IMG/VR virus record: IMGVR_UViG_3300045988_148326
Location: 1 to 51,537 of that record
DNA: 51,537 nt
Reading direction: 5' to 3' (one strand)
From: a virus
Within the stretch, counting starts at the first letter, position 1. The number at the start of each line of letters is the position of its first letter. Under the pieces are notes generated by a model that worked only from the letters and a program-made list of their open reading frames with translations, had not been told where the DNA came from and ran no database searches. Positions 1 to 51,537 of this stretch are shown one piece after another. The position numbers were made by a program, and so were the translations under genes.

Positions 1-119
1 ATTTTTTTTTCTTTCGAGAATAGTTTGTATATTTGCATATCGAAAATAAGATAATAAAATTCACCAAAATATGGAACAATTTAATATAGGTAATGTAATT
101 GAGCACTACAAGCTAAATA
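1..119. repeat. Left copy of window-terminal direct duplication (1..119 = 51419..51537). Indicates circular/permuted assembly overlap or a short direct terminal repeat; unit genome 51,418 bp
   Basis: Both ends read A-T9-CTTTCGAGAATAGTTTGTATATTTGCATATCGAAAATAAGATAATAAAATTCACCAAAATATGGAACAATTT...AGCTAAATA, identical by eye. Confidence 0.9.
27..60 (+). promoter_or_regulatory. Early promoter/leader box with Bacteroidota-type -7 element TATATTTG (28..35)
   Basis: GTATATTTGCATATCGAAAATAAGATAATAAAAT. The same 34-nt box recurs with 3 mismatches at 10368..10401, and related boxes lie on the minus strand at 20015..20037, 21867..21887 and 21968..21988. Confidence 0.55.
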
Positions 120-2914: not shown

Positions 2915-2995
2915 AGTATAGTAGTTTAATGGTAAAACTACAGAGCGCCATTGGTTTGTGTGCCTGTTATGCGGGTTCGAGTCCCGCCTATACTC
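2915..2995 (+). tRNA. tRNA-like gene with canonical acceptor, D and T arms but a non-canonical, over-long anticodon arm; isotype undetermined
   Basis: - Acceptor AGTATAG (2915..2921) pairs perfectly with CTATACT (2988..2994).
- D arm GTTT-AATGGTA-AAAC.
- T arm GCGGG-TTCGAGT-CCCGC.
- The 28 nt at 2940..2967 fold only as ACAG(A)GCGC / GTGCCTGT with an 11-nt loop CATTGGTTTGT.
- No encoded CCA. Confidence 0.6.
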
Positions 2996-3024
2996 CTAAT
3001 TTTATAATATCAAATTAAGAAATA

Positions 3025-11421: not shown

Positions 11422-12243
11422 ATGGCAAAAGTTTATAACACAACAGACCTCAGACCAGACCAGGCATTTGAGCGTCATGTATTCCACAGAGACCAGTTTG
11501 CGCATTATCTGCGATGGACTCATATCTTGAAAGAAGCCAAAATTGGTGAGTCTATTGTTGATTTTGGCTGTGGAGCTGCTAACTTGCTTGAGGTATTATA
11601 CAGAAACAAGTTTAAGCAAAAAGAATATATCGGTATCGATATTCGCGAAAAAACAATTCAAGAAGCAGCTGAGAAGTATGCCAATGTACCTTGGGCTCAT
11701 TTCTATGTTGCTGACCTTGTTAAAAACTACATGGATTTCAGCAAGTTTAATGCTGACAAAGTCTGCGCTTTTGAAGTGCTTGAGCACGTTGGCAAACAGA
11801 ATGCAGATGCATTTTTGGAGAACTTTAAGGCTTGTGGCAATAATAACGCTACTTATTACCTTTCAACTCCAAACTATGACCCATCTGTAGGAGCAGCTGG
11901 TAATCATACTTATGACTCAGGTGATGGTCGCGGAGTTGATGTGCAAGAGTTTGACCATTGGGAACTCGAAGGCATATTGTTGAAGCATTTCAACATAGTA
12001 AAGAAGTTCGGTACATTTGCTTCAGCTAAAGACTATAAGCCACTGATGAACGATTGGCAACAGAAAATGTTTGATGCTCTTAAAGAGTATTATGACTCAA
12101 ACCTCATTGCCAATATCATGGCTCCTATGTTCCCAGATGCTTCACGTAATACTCTTTGGGTATTAAAGCGTAAGCCGGGAGATGTAAAAGTTGCTCCTAA
12201 AGCCACTGAGCAACCAAGTTTATTCGATGACGATTTAATGTAA
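11422..12243 (+). CDS. Class I SAM-dependent methyltransferase (small-molecule/UbiG-like appearance; substrate unknown)
   Basis: Motif I IVDFGCGAANLL, acidic motif II YIGIDI and AFEVLEHV. No (D/N/S)PP(Y/F) or PC-type DNA methyltransferase motif seen. Confidence 0.75.
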   Translation: MAKVYNTTDLRPDQAFERHVFHRDQFAHYLRWTHILKEAKIGESIVDFGCGAANLLEVLYRNKFKQKEYIGIDIREKTIQEAAEKYANVPWAHFYVADLVKNYMDFSKFNADKVCAFEVLEHVGKQNADAFLENFKACGNNNATYYLSTPNYDPSVGAAGNHTYDSGDGRGVDVQEFDHWELEGILLKHFNIVKKFGTFASAKDYKPLMNDWQQKMFDALKEYYDSNLIANIMAPMFPDASRNTLWVLKRKPGDVKVAPKATEQPSLFDDDLM

Positions 12244-12280
12244 CAGATATGTTGAACTTAATTGCTAATTTGGCATCATT

Positions 12281-12655
12281 ATGAAAAGTTTAATTTCAGT
12301 AACTCCAAGAGAGTTTAAACGTAACTTCAATGAAGTAATGGAAATGTGCACAGATATGTGCATGACAACCAATCAGGAGATTATTATCACTGTTCCTACG
12401 AGCAGAAAGTCAAATACTCATGCAGAAATAGCCAAGCTTATTCCTGTAGAAGGAGGTATTAAGTATGAGTACAATAAAGAACTTATGGATAAGCATGGCA
12501 TTAACGCTTCTAATCCTAAGCTTTCAAAAATTGGAGCTATCATGGCTGATGCTTTTGAAAAAGAAGGAGTTTACAGCCTTATAAGTCCAGAAGTTGAACA
12601 TAGACTTGCTAGAGCTGTAGAAACAGCAGCTAAGGAACTTGTTAAAATGATGTAG
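12281..12655 (+). CDS. Hypothetical protein
   Basis: 124-aa ORF with no recognisable motif. Confidence 0.5.
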   Translation: MKSLISVTPREFKRNFNEVMEMCTDMCMTTNQEIIITVPTSRKSNTHAEIAKLIPVEGGIKYEYNKELMDKHGINASNPKLSKIGAIMADAFEKEGVYSLISPEVEHRLARAVETAAKELVKMM

Positions 12656-12657
12656 TC

Positions 12658-13152
12658 ATGAAATTTGCAAAAATAAGAAATGTAAAGTCCCCTGTTCGTG
12701 GGACTGGTAAAGCAGCAGGAATTGATTTTTTCGTTCCTAACTTTGGCAGTAACAAAGGCTTTATTGTAAATCCAGGAACTGATGTTTTGATACCATCAGG
12801 TATTAAGATGGAAATTCCAGAAGGATATATGCTTATGGCAGCTGATAAATCAGGAGTTGTAACTTCTAAATGGGCTTGCCTTGGAGCTGGTAGAACACCA
12901 AAAGCAGAAGCATTTGAAAGCATCGTTATCCTCGGAGCTAAGATTGTAGATGAAGATTACCAAGGTGAAATTCATATACATGTTGTTAATGTCGGCAAAG
13001 CCAAGGTCCACATTAAGCCAGGTATGAAAATAGCACAATTTATTCTTGTGCCTGTATCGTATGAAGGTCTTGAAGAAGTTTCTGAGTCAGAGCTTTTCAG
13101 CCGTTCATCTGAGCGTGGTGATGGAGCACTCGGGTCTACTGGGTCATACTAA
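12658..13152 (+). CDS. Trimeric dUTPase-fold dNTP pyrophosphatase (dUTPase; dCTPase activity cannot be excluded)
   Basis: All five dUTPase motifs are present: AAGIDFF, ADKSGV (K in place of the usual R), IVDEDYQGEI, GMKIAQFIL and RGDGALGSTG. Confidence 0.85.
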   Translation: MKFAKIRNVKSPVRGTGKAAGIDFFVPNFGSNKGFIVNPGTDVLIPSGIKMEIPEGYMLMAADKSGVVTSKWACLGAGRTPKAEAFESIVILGAKIVDEDYQGEIHIHVVNVGKAKVHIKPGMKIAQFILVPVSYEGLEEVSESELFSRSSERGDGALGSTGSY

Positions 13153-13173
13153 AAATAATTAAATTTTAAAATT

Positions 13174-13629
13174 ATGGCTAAATTTATTGGAGTTAAAATG
13201 ATTGAAGCTACTCCTATGAGAGCTTCTATGGCTTTAAGTGCAGGTTATAAAATTGGTAATGCTCATCCAGATGATATGGGTTATGAAGTAACTTATCCTG
13301 ATGGATATAAATCTTGGAGTCCTGCTAAAGAGTTTGAGAAAGCTTATTATAAACTTGAAGACCCTACTGGAGATACTCTTAAAGTAAATGATATTAAGAG
13401 ATTTATTAGTAATATTGAAAATGTAAAAGTTGGTACTAAAACAACTAATACTACTCTTACTTGTCTTACTGGATTTGAGGTTCATGGTCAAGCAGCTTGT
13501 GTAAAACCTGAAAACTTTGATTTAAATGTTGGTTCTAATTATGCTCGAATTAAAGCTGAAGATAAAATTTGGGAAGGTCTTGGATTTGTTCTTCAGTGGG
13601 CAAAATATGGACTAACATTCAATGAATAA
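13174..13629 (+). CDS. Conserved-looking hypothetical phage protein
   Basis: N-terminus FIGVKMIEATPM...GYEVTYPDGYKSWSPAKEFEKAYY resembles a widespread small phage domain of unknown function. Confidence 0.55.
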   Translation: MAKFIGVKMIEATPMRASMALSAGYKIGNAHPDDMGYEVTYPDGYKSWSPAKEFEKAYYKLEDPTGDTLKVNDIKRFISNIENVKVGTKTTNTTLTCLTGFEVHGQAACVKPENFDLNVGSNYARIKAEDKIWEGLGFVLQWAKYGLTFNE

Positions 13630-13642
13630 TCAATTTATTCAC

Positions 13643-13729
13643 TATTCTCGCGCGCGATATTGCACTTTAAGTATGAAGCAAAAGATTTATATTCAGAAAA
13701 ACAGGTGGGCTCTAAGACGCGCGAGAATA
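13643..13729. promoter_or_regulatory. 12-bp perfect inverted repeat TATTCTCGCGCG / CGCGCGAGAATA with a 63-nt spacer, in the intergenic gap
   Basis: 13643..13654 and 13718..13729 are exact reverse complements. Both arms contain the ATTCTCGC/GCGAGAAT motif. Confidence 0.6.
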
Positions 13730-13743
13730 TAACTTTAAAGATT

Positions 13744-14187
13744 ATGGCAGAAATTCCTCAAATAATTAATACAAGCCAGTTTCTTAGGTTCGCAGCTGTA
13801 TATGCTAACAAGTTCAAAGCGAATAAAGGATATGGCAGATGGCTTGCAGAGTACGAGCACATGGATAAAGCCGGTATGTTTAAACCAGAAAATATAAGAG
13901 AACAGTATATAAAAATACTCAATGGCACGAGCCGGTTATCTTATATATACTGGGATGCGGTACACTATATTTGTATACAAGCTCTTGATGCCGCTAAGGC
14001 TTTTGCTTCTGCAAACTCATTTGATGTTAGAGTTATAACTGGCGAAATTGCAGTAAATGATAACGACGAAGAACTTACATGCTTATCTATGGAAGAAGCA
14101 ATAAGTATTTGCAATGCCATGAATGAGGAAGCTGAAGAATTGTTGTTTAGAGTTTATAACAGTAACACTAATAAAATAGTTAAATGA
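13744..14187 (+). CDS. Hypothetical protein (track ORF starts at TTG 13660; first in-frame ATG at 13744 preferred)
   Basis: The TTG-started extension would run through the inverted-repeat element. MAEIPQIINTSQFLRF... starts right after it. Confidence 0.5.
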   Translation: MAEIPQIINTSQFLRFAAVYANKFKANKGYGRWLAEYEHMDKAGMFKPENIREQYIKILNGTSRLSYIYWDAVHYICIQALDAAKAFASANSFDVRVITGEIAVNDNDEELTCLSMEEAISICNAMNEEAEELLFRVYNSNTNKIVK

Positions 14188-14188
14188 T

Positions 14189-14365
14189 ATGGCAAAGTAT
14201 ATAGAAGATAAAGTTCACATTGAAAGTCCGATGGATTTAGAAGCTGAATTATGTAAATATAATTGCAAAACTGAAAAAGAACTTGATGAGCTTCTTTGGT
14301 ATGATTATGGAGTTGCACTTATATTAGATTATAAATATAAAGATAAAGAAGAGAATAACGTATGA
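14189..14365 (+). CDS. Small hypothetical protein (58 aa, below the ORF-track cutoff)
   Basis: Hand translation MAKYIEDKVHIESPMDLEAELCKYNCKTEKELDELLWYDYGVALILDYKYKDKEENNV. Its stop overlaps the next start (ATGA at 14362..14365). Confidence 0.45.
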   Translation: MAKYIEDKVHIESPMDLEAELCKYNCKTEKELDELLWYDYGVALILDYKYKDKEENNV

Positions 14366-15042
14366 ACATAGCTTATAAAAATGCTACTGAGGCTTTTGAA
14401 GACCTATATGCTTTTATTATGGGCCAAGGAGTAAATACTAATGTTGGAACAAAAGCTGTTTACAATGTTGGTTTTTATTTACTTAATCCTCAGCAACGTG
14501 TCATAACAACAGAATGGCGTAAATTTAGCGAACGATATGCAGAGCGCGAATATGCCTGGTATATGTCTGGAGATAGGAGTGTAGCTGAAATTAAAAAGCA
14601 TGCTCCTATGTGGGATAAAATGCATGGTGGAGATAACATTGTCAATTCTAATTATGGATGGCAGTGGACTCGCAATCACCAATTGGCAAAGTGCATTAAA
14701 CAGCTTAAAGAGAATAAAGATACTCGTCAAGCTTGGTTTACTATATTTGATGGTAAAGAAAAAGATGACTATGAATATGATACACCTTGTACACTGTCAG
14801 TCGGATTTGATATTAAGCCTCAAATAGGAACTCTTGATATGTGTGTAACTATGCGAAGCAACGATTTGGTTTATGGTTTTTGCAATGACCAATATTGCTG
14901 GACAAAACTTCAACAATTAGTCGCAGATGAGCTCGGTGTGCCAATAGGCACTTATTACCATTTTGCTCATGATTTGCATATATATAAGAGACATTTCGAT
15001 ATGCAAGAAAAGTATTATAAACAACAACTTAAAAACTTATAA
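14362..15042 (+). CDS. Thymidylate-synthase-fold deoxypyrimidine 5-hydroxymethyltransferase, T4 gp42 (dCMP hydroxymethylase)-like
   Basis: - REYAWYMS matches T4 RELEWYKS.
- VNSNYGW matches INSNYGW.
- DTPCTLS contains the catalytic Cys.
- MRSNDLVYGFCNDQYCW matches MRSNDVVFGFRNDYAWQ, including the specificity Asp.
- LHIYKRHF matches LHVYSRHF.
- The comparison is from memory of the T4 sequence. Confidence 0.8.
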   Translation: MNIAYKNATEAFEDLYAFIMGQGVNTNVGTKAVYNVGFYLLNPQQRVITTEWRKFSERYAEREYAWYMSGDRSVAEIKKHAPMWDKMHGGDNIVNSNYGWQWTRNHQLAKCIKQLKENKDTRQAWFTIFDGKEKDDYEYDTPCTLSVGFDIKPQIGTLDMCVTMRSNDLVYGFCNDQYCWTKLQQLVADELGVPIGTYYHFAHDLHIYKRHFDMQEKYYKQQLKNL

Positions 15043-15615: not shown

Positions 15616-15796
15616 TAAAATCGCCAAAATCACTTGGCAAATACTGGGAGTAATTTACTTTCCAGCTTATGTAGCATTTTGGTTGCTGCATAAAATAGCA
15701 AGACTCACACTTGCAATCGCATACTTTGGATTGCTTAACAAGCAAGCTGGAAAAGATATAATCAAGTCATTATTTAAGTGGCATGGAAGATATTAA
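15587..15796 (+). CDS. Small membrane protein (alternative start at 15599)
   Basis: Hydrophobic WQILGVIYFPAYVAFWLL and LTLAIAYFGLL segments. Confidence 0.45.
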   Translation: MNYIMKKVFNKIAKITWQILGVIYFPAYVAFWLLHKIARLTLAIAYFGLLNKQAGKDIIKSLFKWHGRY

Positions 15797-16637
15797 GCAA
15801 TATGGAGACTTAACAGAAAAAGAGCTACTCGAATTCATTGCAGAGATTAAAGGTGATGATGAGGATATTGAAGAAGCTCAAGAAGAGGCAAGCGAAAAGA
15901 TTGCCTTAGAAGAAGAGCATACGCAATTATCTGAGTTGCCAGAAAATGCTGAAATCGAAGAATATTATGGAAATGATGCTTGGCGTAAGTTAACAAAAGA
16001 CACTACTTTTCTACATGGTGACGAAGGACAGCGCAAAGCAAGTTTGGCATTAGCAAAAGCTAATAGACAAAAAGCTCAGAGACTTAAGCAAGATAGAATA
16101 CGTATTCAAAGACAGGCATTCAACCAAGAATATATAAGGTTGAGTGACCCTATTGGAAACGAGAATATTAAGCTATTAGTCTCTTTGCTTGTCGAGGAGC
16201 ATACAAGAATGATTGATAAGTATTCTGCTCTTATAAACAAGAGATTAGCCATGCTGCTCAATCCATTCATACCAAGAAGGTTAAGATTATGCAAAATGCT
16301 ATATCCGGACTCAATCCGTATATGTCCTGGCTTTTTATATAGAGCTAGTAAAGAATATGGCAATAATCTTACTTTTTGGGCTATGCCTAACATTCCATAT
16401 TATTTTGCTCAAAATACAGAGCAGAAAATTCTTATGGAACGCAAGCCGGAATTTTTGGTTTCTATTGACAAGTTTATAACCTTTTACCATGAGCATAAAG
16501 ACAAAAGAACTAAAAAGGAACTTAAATATGCTTCACTTATAATACAAAAAGGTGTATATACTTATTTCGATTTGCTGAGATTAAATCCATTCTGGTTTGA
16601 AATATTGTATAACAGTATAATAGAAAAGCTGAAATGA
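15783..16637 (+). CDS. Hypothetical protein with acidic N-terminus, translationally coupled to the response-regulator gene
   Basis: 284 aa. ATGA overlap at 16634..16637 with the downstream gene. Confidence 0.55.
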   Translation: MEDIKQYGDLTEKELLEFIAEIKGDDEDIEEAQEEASEKIALEEEHTQLSELPENAEIEEYYGNDAWRKLTKDTTFLHGDEGQRKASLALAKANRQKAQRLKQDRIRIQRQAFNQEYIRLSDPIGNENIKLLVSLLVEEHTRMIDKYSALINKRLAMLLNPFIPRRLRLCKMLYPDSIRICPGFLYRASKEYGNNLTFWAMPNIPYYFAQNTEQKILMERKPEFLVSIDKFITFYHEHKDKRTKKELKYASLIIQKGVYTYFDLLRLNPFWFEILYNSIIEKLK

Positions 16638-17332
16638 ATAAGCAAATAGGTTTACCAAGAATTTTGGTCTATCAGGACGAAGATTGTAGCGTAATGACAG
16701 ACTATTTACAGTTTTACGGCTTTGAAGTAATTACGTCTACTGAAGCAGATATACTTCACAAAATAAAAGAAGAGAATTATGATTTGTGTATACTCGGACA
16801 CTATAAAACTAGCTTACCTGGTGATTTGAGGTTATTAAAAACTTTGCGTAAAACAGACCGTAGAACACCTGTTATAATGGTATCAGACCAATCTAGATAC
16901 GAGTTTATAATAGATGCTTTTGACGCAGAAGCAGATGATTATATAATCAGGCCATATAACCTCGAAGAGCTAATAAGACGAATAAAGGCAATATTAAGAA
17001 GATGTGGTGTTAAAGTGCGAGCCATTGAGCTATCTTACAAAATTGGTAATTATACATTTGACACAGAGAAAAATACTCTATCAATAAATGGAGTAGAAAC
17101 AAAGCTTACAAATAAAGAAAGCAAAACTCTATCTTTATTGTGTGCCTATAAAAATGAGATACTACCAAAAAAGATACTTATGCAACAAGTATGGACTGAT
17201 GATAATTATTTCAATAAGCGTAGTTTAGACGTCCACATGTGCCTTTTACGTAATTGTCTTAAAATGGATAAACGAATTGTTATTGAAACAAAAAGAGGTA
17301 TCGGTTATTCTCTTGTTGTTAACGAGGAATAA
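16634..17332 (+). CDS. OmpR/PhoB-family response regulator homologue with a degenerate (pseudo-)receiver domain
   Basis: - Receiver: RILVYQDED...YDLCILGHY...VIMVSDQS...ADDYIIRPY.
- Winged helix: LTNKESKTLSLL...QQVW...RSLDVHMCLLRNCL...ETKRGIGYSL.
- The phospho-acceptor Asp position is Gly55 and the conserved Lys is Arg. Confidence 0.85.
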   Translation: MNKQIGLPRILVYQDEDCSVMTDYLQFYGFEVITSTEADILHKIKEENYDLCILGHYKTSLPGDLRLLKTLRKTDRRTPVIMVSDQSRYEFIIDAFDAEADDYIIRPYNLEELIRRIKAILRRCGVKVRAIELSYKIGNYTFDTEKNTLSINGVETKLTNKESKTLSLLCAYKNEILPKKILMQQVWTDDNYFNKRSLDVHMCLLRNCLKMDKRIVIETKRGIGYSLVVNEE

Positions 17333-17337
17333 AAAAT

Positions 17338-17380
17338 AGCGGGAAAATATTTATTTGGTATTCTCCCGCTATATTTTTCT
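17338..17380. terminator. Bidirectional intrinsic terminator between convergent operons
   Basis: AGCGGGAAAATA (17338..17349) pairs with TATTCTCCCGCT (17359..17370), 11 of 12 bp. An A6 run lies on the left and a T5 run on the right. Confidence 0.75.
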
Positions 17381-18252: not shown

Positions 18253-18466
18253 ATTTTAACATTTTTACAATTGTTCTTTTATATGCTAAAGTACCAAAAT
18301 ACCTTTAAATAGAATACTGTTTTAATAATTTTAACATAAAAATTTTTCACGGGCTTATTGCCGCTTTGGCTTGAAACGTATGAGCCTTGGATTATAAAAA
18401 ATATATGAAATTTCATCATTCTTTCGCGTTCTCTCATCATTTCTCTTTATAAATGTAGATTTATAT

Positions 18467-18508
18467 ATCTAATATATGAAAGTGTCCTAGAACGCGCGAA
18501 AATGAGTC
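18467..18508 (+). repeat. 42-bp direct repeat, copy 1
   Basis: ATCTAATATATGAAAGTGTCCTAGAACGCGCGAAAATGAGTC, 41/42 identical to 18675..18716. Followed by T5. Confidence 0.85.
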
Positions 18509-18674
18509 GACTTTTTAATTAAAACTTTTAATAACTGTGAGTAATGCTGCTTGGATATAAATGTGAAGCTGAGGCACTTCAAATCTTATATATGGAGGCC
18601 ATGGAAAAATACATTGATAGGTATACTTCTTTTTCCCTTTATCATGTTATTTTTATGAATTAATATAGAGCTAC

Positions 18675-18716
18675 ATCTAATATATGAAAGTGTCCTAGAA
18701 CGCACGAAAATGAGTC
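18675..18716 (+). repeat. 42-bp direct repeat, copy 2
   Basis: ATCTAATATATGAAAGTGTCCTAGAACGCACGAAAATGAGTC, followed by T5. Lies 208 bp from copy 1. Confidence 0.85.
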
Positions 18717-18778
18717 CTTTTTATACTATAAAAGCTGCATAGCTTAAAATAAAGCTGTGCAGCTTCTGTGGTACAGAT

Positions 18779-18811
18779 AAAAAAAATAACCGCCTCTTCA
18801 CAGAGACGGTT
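18779..18811 (-). terminator. Intrinsic terminator of the 380-aa gene
   Basis: AACCGCCTC (18788..18796) pairs with GAGACGGTT (18803..18811), 8 of 9 bp. On the minus strand the hairpin is followed by A-T8. Confidence 0.7.
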
Positions 18812-18832
18812 ACTAACCCTAAACAGATTTGC

Positions 18833-21832: not shown

Positions 21833-21866
21833 AGTTTAACTGTTTTTTATGTTTATAACTTTGTTG

Positions 21867-21887
21867 TTTTTCGATATACAAATATAC
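21867..21887 (-). promoter_or_regulatory. Leftward promoter box (-7 TATATTTG = complement of 21879..21886)
   Basis: The minus strand reads GTATATTTGTATATCGAAAAA, nearly identical to the box at 27..47. Confidence 0.55.
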
Positions 21888-21967
21888 AATTTTTATTTTA
21901 ATCTGAAAAATTTCTGAGATATTTTTTGTGTTAAATTTTGTTGTTCAATCATTGAATATCTCCGTTG

Positions 21968-21988
21968 TTTTTCGATATGTAAATATAC
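21968..21988 (-). promoter_or_regulatory. Second, tandem leftward promoter-like box (variant -7 TATATTTA)
   Basis: The minus strand reads GTATATTTACATATCGAAAAA. About 27 nt are shared with the box 101 bp downstream. Confidence 0.4.
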
Positions 21989-23153
21989 AAATAATATTTG
22001 AAATATAAAAATATCTGAATAAAATTTTTATGGTAGGTAAAACTTTTTTATTATGGAAATTTTCTCAGATGTTTTTTAACATGGTGTATAATTATTATCA
22101 TAGGAAAATATTCAAGTTAAATATATGTTAAGTATTCTGGTTGTTTATATTAAAAAATATTAATGGATAGACTGGTGTAGTACCTGTATATTCTTTGAAC
22201 CTGTAAAATATTCTATATTAAGAAGTGTTAAGCAATTGTTAAATTTTAATGACGGATTGCCTGTATGCCTGTAATTGGATTGATACCTGAAAATAAATCA
22301 TGTTAAAAAGTGTTAAGGCATTCAGGCAAGTATCCACATTTAACATGACTTAACGGTATTTCATTCCCTTAACCAATGAGGCACATAGCCTTATAGATTT
22401 TTAACATAAAATATTTCGCAGATTGGAAAATTTTGCGCATTGGGAAATTAGGCCCCTGGCGCGGTGCCGGCGTGCCCCTATATATAGTATATAGAGCCAT
22501 GTCCATAGGCAGAAAAATTTTTTGGCTTCAAATCATTCTCGCAAATTGGGATTCAAATCATATATAAGTATGAGCAGGGCCCAGAGGCTCATAAATTCTC
22601 ATTCTTGCATACATTCTCGCAAATATCTATCTAGGCCCTTAGACTTAATAGGGAATTGACAAAATGACATTCTCGCAATAAAGAAGCGAACGCCCAGAAA
22701 TAATTTTCAAAGAAACAAAATAAACATGCAAAATCAAAGGGAAGTTTCTCAATAACTGATTGATTTTCAATAAATTAGACTTTAATAAACAATATAAACA
22801 ATAAATATGTAGGAGAGATAAAATAGATTTGAAATAGTGATATGTGAATAGATAGGCTTATCATATATCACATATAACAGTATAAGACTTCATAGAAGAG
22901 TTAAAGATGATTGTTTCTATGCCCTTTAATTTCTATTCACTAATTAAATTTAATAAACTATTGATTTTCAATTAGTTTTATTTTGTGAAGTAGAAACATG
23001 AAAAACAAAAGCCTAATTTTCTATTCACTGATTAAGATACATGCCTAAATACTTGTGAAGTATGATATTAATATGTTAATTATTCACTAATATAAAAAAT
23101 GTTAATTTTTAATTTTTAGTCTGCGAGAATTTTTACTTATCAGCCTTTATGAC

Positions 23154-23161
23154 TATATTTG
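23154..23161 (+). promoter_or_regulatory. Rightward (late-operon) -7 element TATATTTG
   Basis: GACTATATTTGCAAAAACATT lies 17 nt upstream of the ATG at 23178. A GCGAGAAT motif lies at 23123..23130. Confidence 0.5.
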
Positions 23162-23177
23162 CAAAAACATTAAAAAT

Positions 23178-24014
23178 ATGCACATGATACGAATAGGTAA
23201 ATACAAGTACTTGGTAGACTTACAAGAAGGTTCTAATATTGAATCTGTAAGTGCTTATTTTATACTAGAATTTGAATATGATAACAAGTTCTATGTTGGC
23301 TGGACAGGAGAAACTAATGCCGTTTCTGTAAAGAATAAAATAGATAGGCTTATATACAACGCGTTTCACAACGTCTCATGGTTATGCAAAAATAATCCGG
23401 ACCTTGTAAAAGCCATAGTAGAAAGCAAATACATAACAGTGACAACAGAAGAAATTCCTTTTAATGCTTTATCGCTACCAAATGACTTGTTAAACGTATA
23501 TTCAAGAATGTATGAGTTGATAGATGAGTATAGTGCCTATGCACCATACGGGCATAATATAATAAATAGTCTAAATAAATGTGTGGCAGAAAAAGCAATT
23601 ATACCAGGATACGCTGCAAAATGGGAAATACCAGACACAATACGTAAATCAGGAACAGACACTATACGTAGTTATCCACATAGGGCTGTGTATCAGTATA
23701 CTAAGATAGCAGAAAATACATATAAATTCTATAAAAAGTGGGATTCTATAAGAGAATATGTAAATTCAGTATCTACAAAAATCAATCCGAGCGCTATATA
23801 TATGTGCTGTAATGGCCAGCGAAGAATAGCATACGGCTCTGTATGGAGATTTAATAATACAGATGATATAATAACAATAGAACCAGACCTTAGAAAAGCG
23901 ACCGAATATAGGCAGTTGCAAAACCAAATAAAAAAAGATGTAATACTAGAAGAAAAAAGTAAAACTATATTAGATAAACAACAAAAGTATAATAATCAAT
24001 ATGAAAACAGATAA
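23178..24014 (+). CDS. GIY-YIG-type homing-endonuclease-like protein with a C-terminal NUMOD/IENR-like DNA-binding module
   Basis: AYFILEFEYDNKFYVGWTGE (GIY-x9-YVG spacing), KIDRLIY (Arg), YELIDEY...YGHNIINS (Glu / GxN). C-terminal VYQYTK...WDSIREY...IYMCCNGQRRIAYGSVWRF is typical of free-standing phage endonucleases. Confidence 0.6.
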   Translation: MHMIRIGKYKYLVDLQEGSNIESVSAYFILEFEYDNKFYVGWTGETNAVSVKNKIDRLIYNAFHNVSWLCKNNPDLVKAIVESKYITVTTEEIPFNALSLPNDLLNVYSRMYELIDEYSAYAPYGHNIINSLNKCVAEKAIIPGYAAKWEIPDTIRKSGTDTIRSYPHRAVYQYTKIAENTYKFYKKWDSIREYVNSVSTKINPSAIYMCCNGQRRIAYGSVWRFNNTDDIITIEPDLRKATEYRQLQNQIKKDVILEEKSKTILDKQQKYNNQYENR

Positions 24015-24804: not shown

Positions 24805-25374
24805 ATGATAATAGAAGAAAACAAAAAGCGCTTAGAGGCAAAAGAACAAGCCTTATCACATGAGCATTTATTATCAATTCTTGACTATAATCCAAAAACT
24901 GGTATATTCAGATGGAAATACGCTCAACCACTACGTAAAAAATCTCCTAACGCTGGAGATATAGCAGGCACTACAATAGACCATAAGGGCTATCTAAATA
25001 TAGTAATAGGTAAATATACATACAAAGCTCATAGATTAGCCTGGTTTTATTATTACAAAGAGTGGCCATGTCATGATAGCGACATAGACCACATAGATGG
25101 CAATCCAAAAAATAACAGTATAAATAATCTAAGGCTAGTAACTGGAATGCAAAATAGCCGCAATCGCAAAAAGCATGTTAATAATTCGTCAGGCACAACA
25201 GGAGTATATTGGCATAAACACAATAAAAAATGGGTTGCTGCTATAGGTAATGGTCTGCGCCGTAATGGGAGAGCACTCTATGACTGTCTTGGTTATTTTG
25301 ACAATTATGAAGATGCTGTAGCAGCAAGAAAAGAAGCAGAGATTAGATATGAATATACACAACCTAAAAAATAA
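24805..25374 (+). CDS. HNH homing endonuclease with AP2 DNA-binding domain
   Basis: YKAHRLAWFYY...DIDHIDGNPKNNSINNLRLVTGMQN (HNH_3) followed by SGTTGVYWHKHNKKWVAAIG...LGYFDNYEDAVAARKEAE (AP2). Confidence 0.88.
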   Translation: MIIEENKKRLEAKEQALSHEHLLSILDYNPKTGIFRWKYAQPLRKKSPNAGDIAGTTIDHKGYLNIVIGKYTYKAHRLAWFYYYKEWPCHDSDIDHIDGNPKNNSINNLRLVTGMQNSRNRKKHVNNSSGTTGVYWHKHNKKWVAAIGNGLRRNGRALYDCLGYFDNYEDAVAARKEAEIRYEYTQPKK

Positions 25375-26962: not shown

Positions 26963-27115
26963 ATAAATTCTCGCATTATTCTCGTAATTTCTAATCATTT
27001 TGAGATATTGTCCTTGAGATATTATAATCAAAATAGAAAAATCATGCGAAAATGAGACGATAAAAATACTTAGTTAAAAATTGTCAAAAAGTATACAGCT
27101 TTCAATTTTTATTAG

Positions 27116-27123
27116 TATATTTG
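27116..27123 (+). promoter_or_regulatory. -7 element TATATTTG upstream of the 27220 gene
   Basis: TTAGTATATTTGCACTGTG lies about 95 nt upstream of the ATG. The 257-bp TerL-27220 gap also holds ATTCTCGC (26967), ATTCTCGT (26978) and GCGAAAATGAG (27046). Confidence 0.5.
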
Positions 27124-27219: not shown

Positions 27220-27870
27220 ATGGGATTAAATTGTGGATGCCCTGTTGCAGCACATCTTGCTGACCTTGAGATTAACGATTGCAAGGAAAGCATGGGGCAA
27301 ATTCAAAAAGTTGCATTCCAGCGTATCTATAAGACTGCTGGAGAGTTGAACTCTGTCGCAGACCCGACTAAGAAAGCATCGTTTGCCACTTTGTTTTCTG
27401 CAGCCAATGGTACTAAGATGACAGTGTCGCCTTATATTCAGAGTCCTGCTACAGAACCTGGAGCAGCTCGTACATTCGGTGGTGGAAACCAGACGCTTGG
27501 AGGTATTCCTATTACAATTGGTCGTGAAGCAACAAACTTTACCGGTGTAATTTATCAGGAAAACCAAAAAGTTATTGCTCAGTTGAAGCAGTATCAGTGT
27601 GAAAACATCGGTGTTTATCTTATCGACGAAAATGGCAACATTGGCTGTTTGGTAGATGACCTTGATGAGCCTACTAAGTACATGCCTATTCCTATTTACA
27701 GCTTCTTTGTAGGTGATAAGTCACTTGGCGGGTATGAAGAGCCTGATAGCAATGCTATTAGCTGGTCTTTTGTTCCTAACTGGAGTGATAAGTTCTACAT
27801 TATCAAGCGTGAAACTTTGGACTTTAATCCTCTCACTGATTGGGTTAACGTAGCTTCCGCTGGAGCTTAA
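27220..27870 (+). CDS. Probable abundant virion protein (tail tube or decoration protein is a guess)
   Basis: 216 aa with its own promoter and higher GC, like the capsid and SSB genes. Its C-terminus VASAGA resembles the capsid C-terminus VAAGA. Confidence 0.55.
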   Translation: MGLNCGCPVAAHLADLEINDCKESMGQIQKVAFQRIYKTAGELNSVADPTKKASFATLFSAANGTKMTVSPYIQSPATEPGAARTFGGGNQTLGGIPITIGREATNFTGVIYQENQKVIAQLKQYQCENIGVYLIDENGNIGCLVDDLDEPTKYMPIPIYSFFVGDKSLGGYEEPDSNAISWSFVPNWSDKFYIIKRETLDFNPLTDWVNVASAGA

Positions 27871-34900: not shown

Positions 34901-35151
34901 CAATGCTTTCGGCTTTAATATATATAGCCTTAGCAGCAGCATTTGCTATTTTGCTAATTGGAAAACTCGGTGTGCGCGATGAGATAATCACCAGAGCTCC
35001 TAAGCTTATTTCTCAATTATTTGATTGTGACTTTTGCTTAAGCTTTTGGACGTCGCTTATTCTCGCTATCATTCTCGCTATTTTCTTTAACGAGATGAGT
35101 ATTATATTTATTCCTATCATATCAACCCCTATAACGCGAATTTTAATATGA
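34879..35151 (+). CDS. Small three-TM membrane protein embedded in the tail-morphogenesis module
   Basis: FITMLSALIYIALAAAFAILLIG, CLSFWTSLILAIILAIFF and IIFIPIISTPI hydrophobic segments. Confidence 0.5.
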   Translation: MSTVYFITMLSALIYIALAAAFAILLIGKLGVRDEIITRAPKLISQLFDCDFCLSFWTSLILAIILAIFFNEMSIIFIPIISTPITRILI

Positions 35152-50664: not shown

Positions 50665-50704
50665 CCATTCTCGCAATAATTTCTTATGTGCGAGAATGGT
50701 TTTT
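50665..50704 (+). terminator. Intrinsic terminator after the endolysin, with its stem built from the ATTCTCGC motif
   Basis: CCATTCTCGCA (50665..50675) pairs with TGCGAGAATGG (50689..50699), followed by T5. An alternative 8-bp pairing GCACATAA (50654..50661) / TTATGTGC (50684..50691) competes with it. Confidence 0.7.
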
Positions 50705-50743
50705 ATATTAAATATGAATAATAACAAATAAAACTCAAAGATT

Positions 50744-51136
50744 ATGCGAGAATTAGCGAGAATAATTACACTTATATTTTTAGCCACTATATTATATAGC
50801 TGTAAGTCAATTCAATATGTGCCAGTGGAAACAACGAAAAGAGATACTACTTACTTATCTCAGACCAAAATTGATAGTATATATCATAGAGATTCAATCT
50901 ATGTAGAGCGCAAAGGCGATACCGTGTATCTCAGTAAATATAAATACTTGTATAAATACATAGAAAAGCATGATACTCTCTGGCGAGAAAAAGTTGATAC
51001 AATTCAAGTTGCATACCCTGTAGAAGCTCAGCTATCAAAGTGGCAAAAGATAAAAATTAATATTGGTGAATACCTGATAACCGCCATAGCCTTAGTAATT
51101 ATATGGCTGTGTGCAAAATACTTCATAAAGCGGTAA
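50744..51136 (+). CDS. Lipoprotein with C-terminal transmembrane helix (unimolecular-spanin-like)
   Basis: Signal peptide plus lipobox IFLATILYS-C, and C-terminal TM YLITAIALVIIWLCAKYFI. Last gene of the lysis cassette. Confidence 0.5.
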   Translation: MRELARIITLIFLATILYSCKSIQYVPVETTKRDTTYLSQTKIDSIYHRDSIYVERKGDTVYLSKYKYLYKYIEKHDTLWREKVDTIQVAYPVEAQLSKWQKIKINIGEYLITAIALVIIWLCAKYFIKR

Positions 51137-51418: not shown

Positions 51419-51537
51419 ATTTTTTTTTCTTTCGAGAATAGTTTGTATATTTGCATATCGAAAATAAGATAATAAAATTCACCAAAATATGGAACAATTT
51501 AATATAGGTAATGTAATTGAGCACTACAAGCTAAATA
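51419..51537. repeat. Right copy of the window-terminal duplication (= 1..119), including the early promoter box and the first 49 nt of the 71..484 gene
   Basis: Identical by eye to 1..119. Confidence 0.9.

Follow-up and report, generated by a model that had tools for sequence, protein, structure and literature searches.

Orphan and Aspartate-Less Response Regulators

Some response regulators of the OmpR/PhoB type act without phosphorylation. HP1043 (HsrA) of Helicobacter pylori, which has the OmpR/PhoB architecture, a degenerate receiver, and no cognate kinase, needs no phosphorylation to dimerise and bind a pair of half-sites that a single turn of the helix separates (PMC8345958). ChxR of Chlamydia trachomatis, an atypical OmpR/PhoB regulator, can likewise dimerise and bind direct repeats while unphosphorylated (PMC3960148). 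Proteins that domain models recognise as receivers but that are missing the catalytic Asp are defined as aspartate-less or pseudo-receivers (PMC4395418, PMC12632262), a class that includes RitR, GlnR, CmrT, and NblR. Retained Thr/Ser and Tyr switch residues are typical of them (PMC4395418, PMC12632262), Glu is the commonest residue at their acceptor position, and their switching between active and inactive states is still to be explained (PMC12632262). RprY of the Bacteroidota is an orphan without RprX in P. gingivalis (PMC6032018), where it is controlled by acetylation and by UbK1 tyrosine phosphorylation (PMC6032018, PMC13241743), and rprX/rprY were scored as essential in B. fragilis 638R in one transposon study (PMC4072883). 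A literature search for an RprY binding motif found none.

Phages and viruses are nowhere mentioned in the reviews PMC4395418 and PMC12632262, and a literature search for phage-encoded response regulators found nothing relevant. OmpR-type regulators do occur in phage or prophage records (phrog_731; Bacillus phage proCM3), but those retrieved are at most 31% identical to the protein described here, and the annotated ones (proCM3, cusRS-like pairs) have a gene for a sensor kinase next to them.

Here we describe a regulator encoded in a 51,537-nucleotide virus record (IMG/VR IMGVR_UViG_3300045988_148326; its full length is the window referred to below). The protein is like HP1043 in its OmpR/PhoB architecture, degenerate receiver, and lack of a cognate kinase, and is matched by it in sequence (2hqr, E 2.6e-12) and in fold (22% identity in the fold alignment). 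However, HP1043 is encoded by an essential cellular gene and is distant in sequence, and dimerisation and DNA binding of the phage protein are predicted only; ChxR, too, differs in being a cellular gene, that of an intracellular bacterium. With the pseudo-receiver class the protein shares a receiver recognised by models, a missing phospho-Asp, and the Thr/Ser and Tyr switch, but all members of its clade whose contigs could be inspected are on phage-like ones, and they differ in the acceptor residue, which is Gly or Ser where Glu is commonest among aspartate-less receivers. Compared with RprY, the protein is missing the acid pair, the acceptor Asp, and the conserved Lys, and has no adjacent rprX. 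The reading that we favour, tentatively and at somewhat less than an even chance, is a phosphorylation-independent pseudo-receiver transcription factor of RprY ancestry that would act on a clade-specific element of the phage genome. With its phosphorylation site gone, the regulator is probably an always-on transcription switch that requires no sensor kinase.

The Regulator Gene and Its Predicted Fold

An earlier note on this DNA had proposed a full receiver plus winged-helix architecture for the gene and a check against two Pfam models, both of which match: Response_reg (PF00072) at residues 19-118 (E 3.6e-11, 43.7 bits against a cutoff of 30.2) and Trans_reg_C (PF00486) at residues 155-227 (E 2.5e-17, 63.2 bits against 26.2), as expected of the OmpR/PhoB type. 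Alignments to solved regulators and an AlphaFold model concur with the proposed architecture. Among PHROGs, phrog_731 matches at 1.3e-39, and HMMER aligns the protein to the solved structures of PrrA (1ys6, E 1.3e-24), DrrD (1kgs), and RegX3 (2oqr). The AlphaFold model (pLDDT 85.5) retrieves KdpE, RpaA, PrrA, and CosR with Foldseek at E ~1e-14, and HMMER and Foldseek together match the full length to the solved OmpR-family members KdpE, PrrA, CosR, and PmrA. Secondary structure in the model runs from β1 (residues 9-13) through α5 (residues 110-123), and receiver-only PDB structures match it with TM 0.82-0.90 and rmsd ~2.2 Å. Conservation is highest at W187-R206 (WTDDNYFNKRSLDVHMCLLR) in the winged helix, and on the dimer face D101, D102, Y103, E111, E112, R116, and R123 are conserved. 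As modelled, the protein is an OmpR/PhoB-type regulator with a pseudo-receiver, its fold and both domains intact. Coordinates are collected in Table 1.

Table 1. Features of the regulator locus and sites of the repeat element in the window.
Feature	Position	Strand	Basis
One-mismatch copy TATTCTCGAAA, 6 bp upstream of -7 box TATATTTG at 28	13..21	-	
Inverted pair ATTCTCGCGCG / CGCGCGAGAAT, spacing 77 bp	13644..13728	.	
Upstream 284-aa gene, acidic N-terminus, conserved helical C-terminal part	15783..16637	+	Homologs, AlphaFold
ATGA start/stop overlap of 284-aa gene and regulator	16634..16637	+	Sequence
232-aa RprY-like pseudo-response regulator gene	16634..17332 (stop codon counted)	+	ORF list, Pfam, phrog_731, AlphaFold, Foldseek
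Receiver (pseudo-receiver) domain, residues 9-123, (beta-alpha)5 fold	16658..17002	+	Secondary structure, PDB matches
Gln14-Asp15-Glu16-Asp17 codons; canonical acid pair aligns to Gln14-Asp15	16673..16684	+	Alignments
Gly55 codon GGA, phospho-acceptor position	16796..16798	+	Alignments, model
Ser84 codon, retained Thr/Ser switch residue	16883..16885	+	Alignments, model
Arg106 codon AGG, conserved-Lys position	16949..16951	+	Alignments, model
Winged-helix DNA-binding domain, residues 134-229	17033..17320	+	Pfam Trans_reg_C, conservation in alignment A6
Hairpin between convergent gene blocks, likely two-way terminator	17336..17372	.	Inverted repeat I2, RNA fold
ATTCTCGCA cluster: 22535, 22601 (one mismatch), 22613, 22669	22535..22677	+	
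ATTCTCGCA copy 23 bp upstream of -7 box TATATTTG (23154); operon starts 23178	23122..23130	-	
Tandem pair 26967/26978 (+, 11 bp apart) and inverted degenerate copy 27045 (-)	26967..27053	.	
Tandem element pair with 12-bp spacing, shortly upstream of gene 35148	35059..35079	+	
Four element copies: 50667(+)/50689(-) and 50745/50755 (-)	50667..50763	.	

The Receiver Active Site

Three of the five catalytic residues of a receiver are replaced (Glu/Asp by Gln14, Asp by Gly55, and Lys by Arg106). Gly55 lies opposite the phospho-Asp and Arg106 opposite the conserved Lys in the HMMER alignments and in the model, as the earlier note had claimed, and domain matches, alignments, and model also uphold its view that canonical phosphorylation is impossible. 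In the AlphaFold model Gly55, Arg106, and Ser84 stand at the ends of strands β3, β5, and β4, matching canonical receivers, and the first two are invariant in 118 close relatives. A shifted register concealing an acceptor Asp was ruled out, three independent alignments and the AlphaFold model being in agreement. The acidic pocket and the Ser/Thr had both been thought to be kept; this holds for Ser84, which with Tyr103 supplies the switch pair (Thr/Ser at the end of β4, Tyr/Phe in β5), but only partly for the pocket, as the acid pair that holds Mg2+ after β1 is incomplete in the regulator and its positions are unconserved across the wider family. A receiver by domain models with the catalytic Asp missing, the protein falls within the pseudo-receiver definition.

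Among 86 distinct IMG/VR sequences, the acceptor position is occupied by Ser in 78, Gly in seven (including the window's own), and Asp in one, and the pattern is alike in 120 further proteins. The Gly- and Ser-acceptor clades are alike apart from this residue; the YQDEDC stretch is conserved in both, and His56 is likewise nearly invariant. Such strict conservation hints that the old active site may still bind something, and a ligand there would argue against a purely always-on protein. Activity could depend on a non-canonical input, which might be a ligand or metal held by YQDEDC and His56, phosphorylation or acetylation by the host on Ser, Thr, or Tyr, or a partner such as the product of the upstream 284-aa gene acting as an anti-activator. 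We consider this unlikely, though worth keeping in view: the loop and His56 have stayed nearly invariant despite loss of the acceptor, Ser occupies the acceptor position in the commonest clade, RprY of P. gingivalis is controlled in comparable ways, and ligand- or anti-activator-controlled pseudo-receivers are known, e.g., MirA acting on Rem (PMC12632262), but Gly55 is unmodifiable in this phage while the clades with Gly and with Ser otherwise do not differ.

Genomic Context and the Upstream Gene

The regulator, which the earlier note had taken for the last gene of the early operon, is the last + strand gene before a strong hairpin (RNA fold -18.6 kcal/mol, z -5.4) with a U-run behind it and a convergent block. 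Its neighbours are the 284-aa gene, of unassigned function, and a convergent 157-aa ORF; rprX was absent from the flanking genes examined, and the large non-coding gaps of the window matched none of the RNA families in Rfam. The reported lack of a histidine kinase also stands, in that Pfam found no HisKA or HATPase_c domain in the window ORFs scanned; for the large replication and packaging genes, PHROGs was the sole scan, and these genes have other clear functions. This absence concerns phage ORFs only, and a host kinase may still serve the regulator.

The ATGA overlap that had been described between the two genes is there in the sequence, and 82 of 85 distinct related loci retain it. The upstream gene and the regulator stay neighbours down to 40% regulator identity, which would suit a partner. 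However, four-base overlaps of the ATGA type occur at eight junctions in the gene list of the window, and the upstream gene is not the ORFan it had been called: it has 368 homologs, is conserved across this phage group, and closes the same module in the cultured Bacteroides phage BF503P2, where its homolog (33% identity, E 4e-43) has no regulator behind it. The gene thus has a function of its own. The proposed two-protein unit is therefore unsupported, and a dedicated module of these two genes was rejected on the same grounds. The 284-aa protein has no match in Pfam, PHROG, NCBIfam, or PADLOC, and PADLOC and NCBIfam found nothing among its neighbours; its all-helical AlphaFold model is of low confidence (pLDDT 66.8) and Foldseek found no PDB fold with E below 0.1, which likewise weighs against its being the partner.

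Distribution and Selection

A host in the Bacteroidota, as had been suggested, is supported by the portal protein, which is 74% identical to those of B. fragilis phages. The regulator clade is so far found only on phage-like contigs, as far as the contigs could be inspected, and is very abundant in human-gut metagenomes, where individual 90% clusters exceed 2,300 and 2,800 sequences. Cultured phages gave no match in a DNA search with the 15-18 kb region, and tblastn of the regulator against them retrieved distant regulators only (at most 31% identity), several of them from contaminated or prophage-like records, a result that is uninformative on this clade.

The gene might be a decaying passenger, the relic of a captured two-component regulator heading for loss. 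The lost catalytic residues and the missing kinase would fit this, as would the absence of the gene from BF503P2, a related and syntenic phage. However, dN/dS is 0.10-0.15 overall and 0.10-0.17 for the receiver, with both domains alike at ~0.1, which indicates purifying selection and contradicts decay. Hundreds of variants have an unbroken reading frame, the fold is confidently predicted, and all assessable close relatives carry the gene (161 of 161 loci anchored on the response regulator, and 20 of 20 close-relative loci anchored on TerL with enough upstream DNA). We therefore regard a passenger in decay as highly improbable. Pseudogene status was rejected on the dN/dS values.

RprY Ancestry

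The best NCBIfam model for the regulator is RprY (179 bits, with the next family at 115), as it is for other clade members, although the score lies far below the RprY equivalog cutoff of 370 bits (NF051850). P0258, which at 38-41% identity is the nearest canonical relative, scores 442.5 bits against that cutoff and is thus itself a true RprY; it came from an exhaustive representative search together with NCBIfam. A single-peptide-pattern scan of 185,579 species genomes gave, among the matches listed, generic regulators only (27-35% identity) and missed RprY, so it is not taken as evidence that cellular relatives are absent.

The stretches DDNYFNxRSxDV and, on the dimer face, ADDYIxxPxxxEEL are common to the regulator and RprY. 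At the recognition-helix positions that usually read bases, the regulator has H201, M202, C203, L204, and N207 versus Y, I, T, K, and K in RprY. Helix α1 is the usual kinase-docking surface of receivers; it is remodelled in the regulator, where the β1-α1 loop is two residues shorter and the β3-α3 loop altered.

The earlier note had proposed that the protein could hijack host OmpR-family regulons, an idea for which kinship with RprY is one lead. These comparisons bear on whether the phage protein targets the host and not the phage by mimicking RprY, be it by occupying RprY-type promoter sites, by forming inactive dimers with host RprY through the α4-β5-α5 face that both have, or by acting as an unphosphorylatable decoy for RprX, with an envelope or stress regulon rewired as a result. 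The wide margin of the family assignment, the true RprY as nearest canonical relative, the shared DNA-binding and dimer-face stretches, and the essentiality scored for rprX/rprY would all suit mimicry. Against it, the base-reading residues are unlike those of RprY, the kinase-docking helix and the loop before it are remodelled, identity is only ~40% so that any capture must be ancient, and the phage genome carries a clade-specific element of its own, which speaks for targets on the phage. Taken together, we find such mimicry improbable, though not far-fetched. A narrower version, in which the degenerate copy is a weapon against host RprXY, is a long shot: a copy that cannot be phosphorylated would poison RprY dimers or block RprX, and as RprXY was scored essential (in one study), the infected host would lose its envelope and stress control to such a decoy. 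Were this so, the protein would be the first virus-encoded pseudo-response regulator serving as an anti-signalling decoy. RprY ancestry in any case suggests a connection, open to experiment, with a host regulator reported as essential by one study.

A Clade-Specific Repeat Element as Candidate Operator

The earlier note had suggested that the regulator might read direct repeats in the intergenic regions. A clade-specific element, ATTCTCGC(A), is enriched ten-fold in the window: exact ATTCTCGC copies number 13 against 1.3 expected, a count that 0 of 100 shuffles reach, and tandem pairs at 10-12 bp number four against 0.08 in simulations. Element copies adjoin three of the four intergenic TAnnTTTGCA boxes, and their positions are kept in relatives with the regulator. 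BF503P2, which is syntenic and without the regulator, shows no ATTCTCGC enrichment (two copies against 1.2 expected), and the more distant L313 has zero copies. A scan of viral contigs for the tandem element returned this clade and what are probably chance matches, the latter with no related regulator in the stretches fetched. Among the Pfam-scanned ORFs, the regulator was the only protein recognisable as a sequence-specific DNA binder.

Several sites stand at promoters or gene starts (Table 1). The cluster that begins at 22535 sits in the non-coding gap of 1.35 kb that precedes the late operon, in a position conserved in regulator-carrying relatives. The copies around 26967 lie upstream of a -7 box at 27116 and a gene at 27220, and the minus-strand copy at 27045 keeps a fixed distance to the -7 box in relatives. 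The pair at 35059 is also conserved, ~8.1 kb downstream of the TerL gene; 50745/50755 is a tandem pair with 10-bp spacing where gene 50744 starts; and the copy at 13 precedes the first + strand gene and is repeated at 51431. Other sites are arranged differently. The inverted pair at 13644 keeps its spacing (77-79 bp) in all regulator-carrying clades including L235, and 50667(+)/50689(-) make up a terminator-like hairpin with a U-run behind it (RNA fold -25.8 kcal/mol, z -8.6).

The enrichment, the tandem pairs, the conservation alongside the regulator, and the absence from BF503P2 make a circumstantial case that the regulator reads these repeats, the link between the two being a co-occurrence that is confounded with phylogeny. 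The element is thus a plausible but unproven candidate operator. One of the ~30 other small ORFs that also differ between this phage and BF503P2, many of them without a recognisable fold, could read it instead.

For a phosphorylation-independent factor, the favoured reading, the receiver would be mainly a dimerisation module working through the α4-β5-α5 face, where the ADDY...R...R residues are retained, and activity would then be set by the timing and amount of protein made. As its gene closes the + strand replication block, the regulator would accumulate in early or middle infection. It may then bind ATTCTCGC(A), which is found in head-to-tail pairs 10-12 bp apart and also beside -7 boxes of the Bacteroides type. 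Bound between -33 and -7, at the copy at 13-21, it would shut the first + strand promoter; bound across the -33 region or farther upstream, it would help the promoters of packaging and structural genes at 23154 and 27116, early and late being assigned to these promoters from gene content alone.

Little is known to us of transcription timing in Bacteroides phages. If the regulator is a temporal switch, the promoter-side repeats would be explained and a handle for engineering these phages gained. Given the open question of pseudo-receiver switching, the phage protein also offers a small, self-contained test system, with an output that could be read on a 51-kb genome, a candidate operator, and natural Gly, Ser, and Asp variants at the acceptor position.

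Judged by their layout, the inverted 77-79 bp pairs, the terminator-like hairpin, and arrays of the element at 24-25 bp spacing do not fit a head-to-tail dimer. These arrays occur at contig ends in some relatives, where they could belong to a packaging site or an origin of replication.

Structure and Active Site of the Regulator

The RprY-like pseudo-response regulator matches Response_reg and Trans_reg_C, both above the Pfam cutoffs, which bears out the domain architecture proposed in the earlier note, and it aligns with solved regulators over its full length (PrrA, E 1.3e-24). In these alignments Gly55 lies opposite the phospho-accepting Asp, Arg106 opposite the conserved Lys, and Ser84 opposite Thr/Ser, as had been read by eye. 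MAFFT alignment with 150 family representatives gives the identical register, as does the AlphaFold model (38 sequences, pLDDT 85.5), which has five canonical strand-helix units and places Gly55, Ser84 and Arg106 at the C-terminal ends of b3, b4 and b5. Foldseek matches include KdpE, RpaA, PrrA, CosR and PmrA, and receiver-only structures superpose at ~2.2 A. The acidic pocket, earlier described as kept ('QDED'), matches the canonical form only by half: opposite the acid pair stand Gln14, a departure, and Asp15, which is retained, and the pocket loop falls two residues short of that in the nearest canonical relatives. HisKA and HATPase_c are absent from all Pfam-scanned ORFs, in agreement with the reported lack of a histidine kinase; the large replication and packaging genes were assigned by PHROGs only and have other clear functions. 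Phosphorylation of the regulator at the canonical site is very improbable.

Features of the window discussed in the text
Feature	Position	Description
Window ends	1-119, 51419-51537	identical
Element copy	13-21	6 bp upstream of -7 box ahead of first + strand gene
tRNA gene	2915-2996 (+)	between ssDNA-binding protein and DNA polymerase genes
Nucleotide-metabolism cluster	11422-15042 (+)	methyltransferase, dUTPase/dCTP-deaminase-like, thymidylate-synthase-family genes
Inverted element pair	13644/13720	77-79 bp
Upstream gene	15783..16637 (+)	284 aa
ATGA overlap	16634-16637	upstream gene/regulator gene
Regulator gene	16634..17332 (+)	232 residues
Strong hairpin	17336-17372	between regulator gene and convergent minus-strand gene block
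Non-coding gap	18253-18832	580 bp, within minus-strand block
45-nt repeats	18464-18508, 18672-18716	near-identical
Non-coding gap	21833-23177	1.35 kb, between divergent gene blocks
Repeats in 1.35-kb gap	21855/21956, 22105/22205, 22751/22952	~every 100 bp
G+C-rich island in 1.35-kb gap	22450-22480	short
Element head-to-tail pairs	22601/22613, 26967/26978, 35059/35071, 50745/50755	10-12 bp apart, <=1 mismatch to 9-mer
Element copy		23 bp upstream of -7 box, operon starting at 23178
HNH endonuclease gene	24805-25374 (+)	PF13392, 1.7e-13; overlaps large terminase gene start
Element copy		62 bp upstream of -7 box, gene 27220
Element hairpin with U-run	50667/50689	-25.8 kcal/mol

The Phage Genome and Its Host Group

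The window covers all or nearly all of a tailed-phage genome, and its identical ends imply that the assembly is circular or terminally redundant, one unit being ~51.4 kb long. PHROG and Pfam matches cover replication (exonuclease, Enc34-type ssDNA-binding protein, DNA polymerase, primase-helicase, SNF2 helicase), nucleotide metabolism and a nuclease (dUTPase, thymidylate synthase, HNH endonuclease), and packaging, structure and lysis (large terminase, portal, scaffold, amidase, holin). Several intergenic regions carry TAnnTTTG followed by CA, which matches the -7 box known from promoters of Bacteroides (Bayley, Rocha and Smith, 2000). The guess that this is a phage of Bacteroidota proved right, because these boxes are joined by a portal that shares 74% identity with the portals of six Bacteroides fragilis phages in culture (BF503P2, BF486P2 and others) and by synteny of most core genes with BF503P2 (identity 40-79%).

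ARAGORN gives the tRNA gene an odd four-base anticodon, 'ccat', with no amino-acid assignment, and Rfam scores it as tRNA at 47 bits. The HNH endonuclease gene is absent from BF503P2; close relatives show a terminase identity that is patchy and lower than expected. In the nucleotide-metabolism cluster, the BF503P2 homolog of the thymidylate-synthase-family gene is annotated as dCMP hydroxymethylase, and one small ORF matches nucleotide/dNMP-kinase PHROGs; the cluster hints at modified bases in the phage DNA. The 1.35-kb gap may contain an origin of replication or a promoter array.

Distribution, Maintenance and Ancestry of the Regulator

Among ~5.8 billion proteins searched, the best 120 matches were >94% identical and lay on ~50-kb contigs, and an exhaustive search of 1.84 billion cluster representatives gave 65 with E < 1e-30. 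Most of the closest representatives end b1 in 'YQ', vs a hydrophobic residue plus Glu/Asp in canonical regulators; in the 'YQ' representatives the next position, part of the acid pair, is not conserved, and Arg, Lys, Ile or Ala stands at the Lys position. Asp is still present at the acceptor position in most of the closest representatives. In the close phage group (86 distinct IMG/VR sequences), the acceptor is Ser in 78, Gly in 7, including the window's own, and Asp in one, which has a different loop, YQVAD; 120 further proteins are split in the same way. The loss of Asp is therefore not private to the window genome: the catalytic site of this receiver is degenerate throughout the clade, and absence of the Asp is one of its states. 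The YQDEDC loop and His56 are nearly invariant in all sequences with a Gly or Ser acceptor. One main rival to constitutive activity is that a non-canonical input controls the regulator, acting at this conserved pocket or via the upstream protein.

In pairwise comparisons with four sister clades, dN/dS was 0.10-0.15 overall, with similar values for the receiver (0.10-0.17) and the DNA-binding domain (0.09-0.23). The regulator and upstream gene are both present in 161/161 loci fetched around regulator relatives, and the regulator in all 20 terminase-anchored loci of close relatives that reach far enough upstream to be assessed. Conserved residues include D101, D102, Y103, E111, E112, R116 and R123 on the a4-b5-a5 face, and W187-R206, spanning the loop and recognition helix of the winged helix. 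Judged from sequence comparison, these phages maintain the gene as a working part, and its product is likely a functional DNA-binding regulator. The OmpR-type fold is intact, its receiver is catalytically degenerate, no kinase was found in the window ORFs scanned, and the gene is under purifying selection and present in all assessable members of the clade.

In NCBIfam, RprY, the regulator of the Bacteroidota RprXY system, is the best model for the phage protein (179 bits, next family 115), at a score far short of the RprY cutoff of 370 bits; other members of the phage clade are likewise closest to RprY. The nearest canonical representative, P0258 (38-41% identity), has a normal acid pair, Asp, Thr and Lys, and is a true RprY (442 bits). 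A genome scan that gave, among the matches listed for one search pattern, only 27-35% matches was disregarded for ancestry. Non-canonical control of RprY has precedents: in P. gingivalis, which lacks RprX, RprY is modulated by acetylation and tyrosine phosphorylation (PMC6032018, PMC13241743), and in B. fragilis 638R rprX/rprY were scored essential (PMC4072883). The other main rival is that the regulator acts on host RprY targets or partners: the two proteins have in common DDNYFNxRSxDV in the DNA-binding domain and dimer-face signatures, whereas their recognition helices differ (H-M-C-L...N in the phage, Y-I-T-K...K in RprY).

Aspartate-less or pseudo-receivers with OmpR-type outputs are a known class, reviewed in 2025 (PMC12632262), and OmpR-type aspartate-less receivers make up ~2% of receiver-OmpR proteins (PMC4395418). 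Neither review mentions phages or viruses, full-text literature searches turned up no account of such a regulator encoded by a phage, and public sources leave the protein unnamed or give it a routine name ('DNA-binding response regulator rprY'). This is therefore a known class of regulator in a new setting, an abundant clade of gut phages in which the gene is fixed.

The Upstream Gene

The upstream gene, which has no match in Pfam, PHROGs, NCBIfam or PADLOC, was earlier called an ORFan, but 368 homologs of it (68-98% identity) occur on similar contigs. Its four-base overlap with the regulator gene is real and is kept in 82/85 distinct loci, and the two genes also stand side by side on a more distant phage-like contig, where regulator identity is down to 40%. 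The overlap had been taken to suggest a two-protein unit. This did not hold up: the window gene list contains 8 ATGA junctions, so the overlap alone says little, and the BF503P2 homolog (33% identity, E 4e-43) is last in the same module, followed directly by the convergent block with no regulator, which indicates that the upstream gene has its own role. The AlphaFold model is helical, with a modest pLDDT of 66.8 and no meaningful PDB match. Regulation of the regulator by contact with this protein, e.g., as an anti-activator, as MirA is of Rem (PMC12632262), is possible but unsupported.

A Candidate Operator Element

Word counts over 4.4 kb of non-coding DNA brought up ATTCTCGCA, and ATTCTCGC has 13 copies over both strands vs 1.3 expected, a count reached in 0/100 shuffles. 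Four head-to-tail pairs occur, vs 0.08 on average in Markov simulations; OmpR/PhoB dimers classically target half-sites in head-to-tail order, spaced by one helical turn (PMC8345958). Regulator-carrying phages have the element at equal relative places around the terminase, and the copy upstream of gene 27220 stays at a constant spacing from the -7 box even where its flanks have diverged. The element is essentially absent from relatives with terminase identity of 64-66%, among them L313, a terminase-flank locus with 10 kb of upstream DNA and no regulator; BF503P2 has two copies vs 1.2 expected. No other recognisable sequence-specific DNA-binding protein was found in Pfam-scanned ORFs.

That the regulator reads the element on the phage is nonetheless a tentative proposal, somewhat doubtful on balance. 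Co-occurrence of element and regulator is confounded with relatedness, and about thirty small ORFs also separate the window phage from BF503P2. The element also forms inverted pairs at a fixed 77-79 bp in every regulator-carrying clade, a tight, terminator-like hairpin with a U-run, and, in some relatives, contig-end arrays at 24-25 bp spacing that could mark a packaging or replication site. When other viral lineages were searched for the tandem element, only the regulator's clade and probable chance matches came back. In the proposed mechanism, the receiver would serve as a constitutive dimerisation module, as in HP1043 of Helicobacter pylori and ChxR of Chlamydia trachomatis, and activity would follow production of the protein, whose gene closes the replication block; the dimer would recognise ATTCTCGCA pairs, repressing the first + strand promoter and assisting packaging and structural-gene promoters.

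In L273, L285 and L299, terminase-flank loci of relatives, five or six ATTCTCGC copies at 24-25 bp spacing lie right where the contig starts, which suggests either the end of a genome or a repeat array at which the assembly broke. The 580-bp gap, with no Rfam family match, contains an inverted repeat, TCATTCTTTCGCGTTCT / AGAACGCGCGAAAATGA, resembling the ATTCTCGC element. A second word, TTTAACAT, has 5/5 of its copies in non-coding DNA of the window and lies upstream of a -7 box in the distant relatives L305, L311 and L317, which lack the ATTCTCGC element, in stretches that carry no regulator gene; another, older regulator may use this word as its site. At 13630-13745, the ORF listed from TTG 13660 more likely begins at ATG 13745, which would make the conserved inverted repeat with a 13-bp stem at 13644/13720 intergenic.
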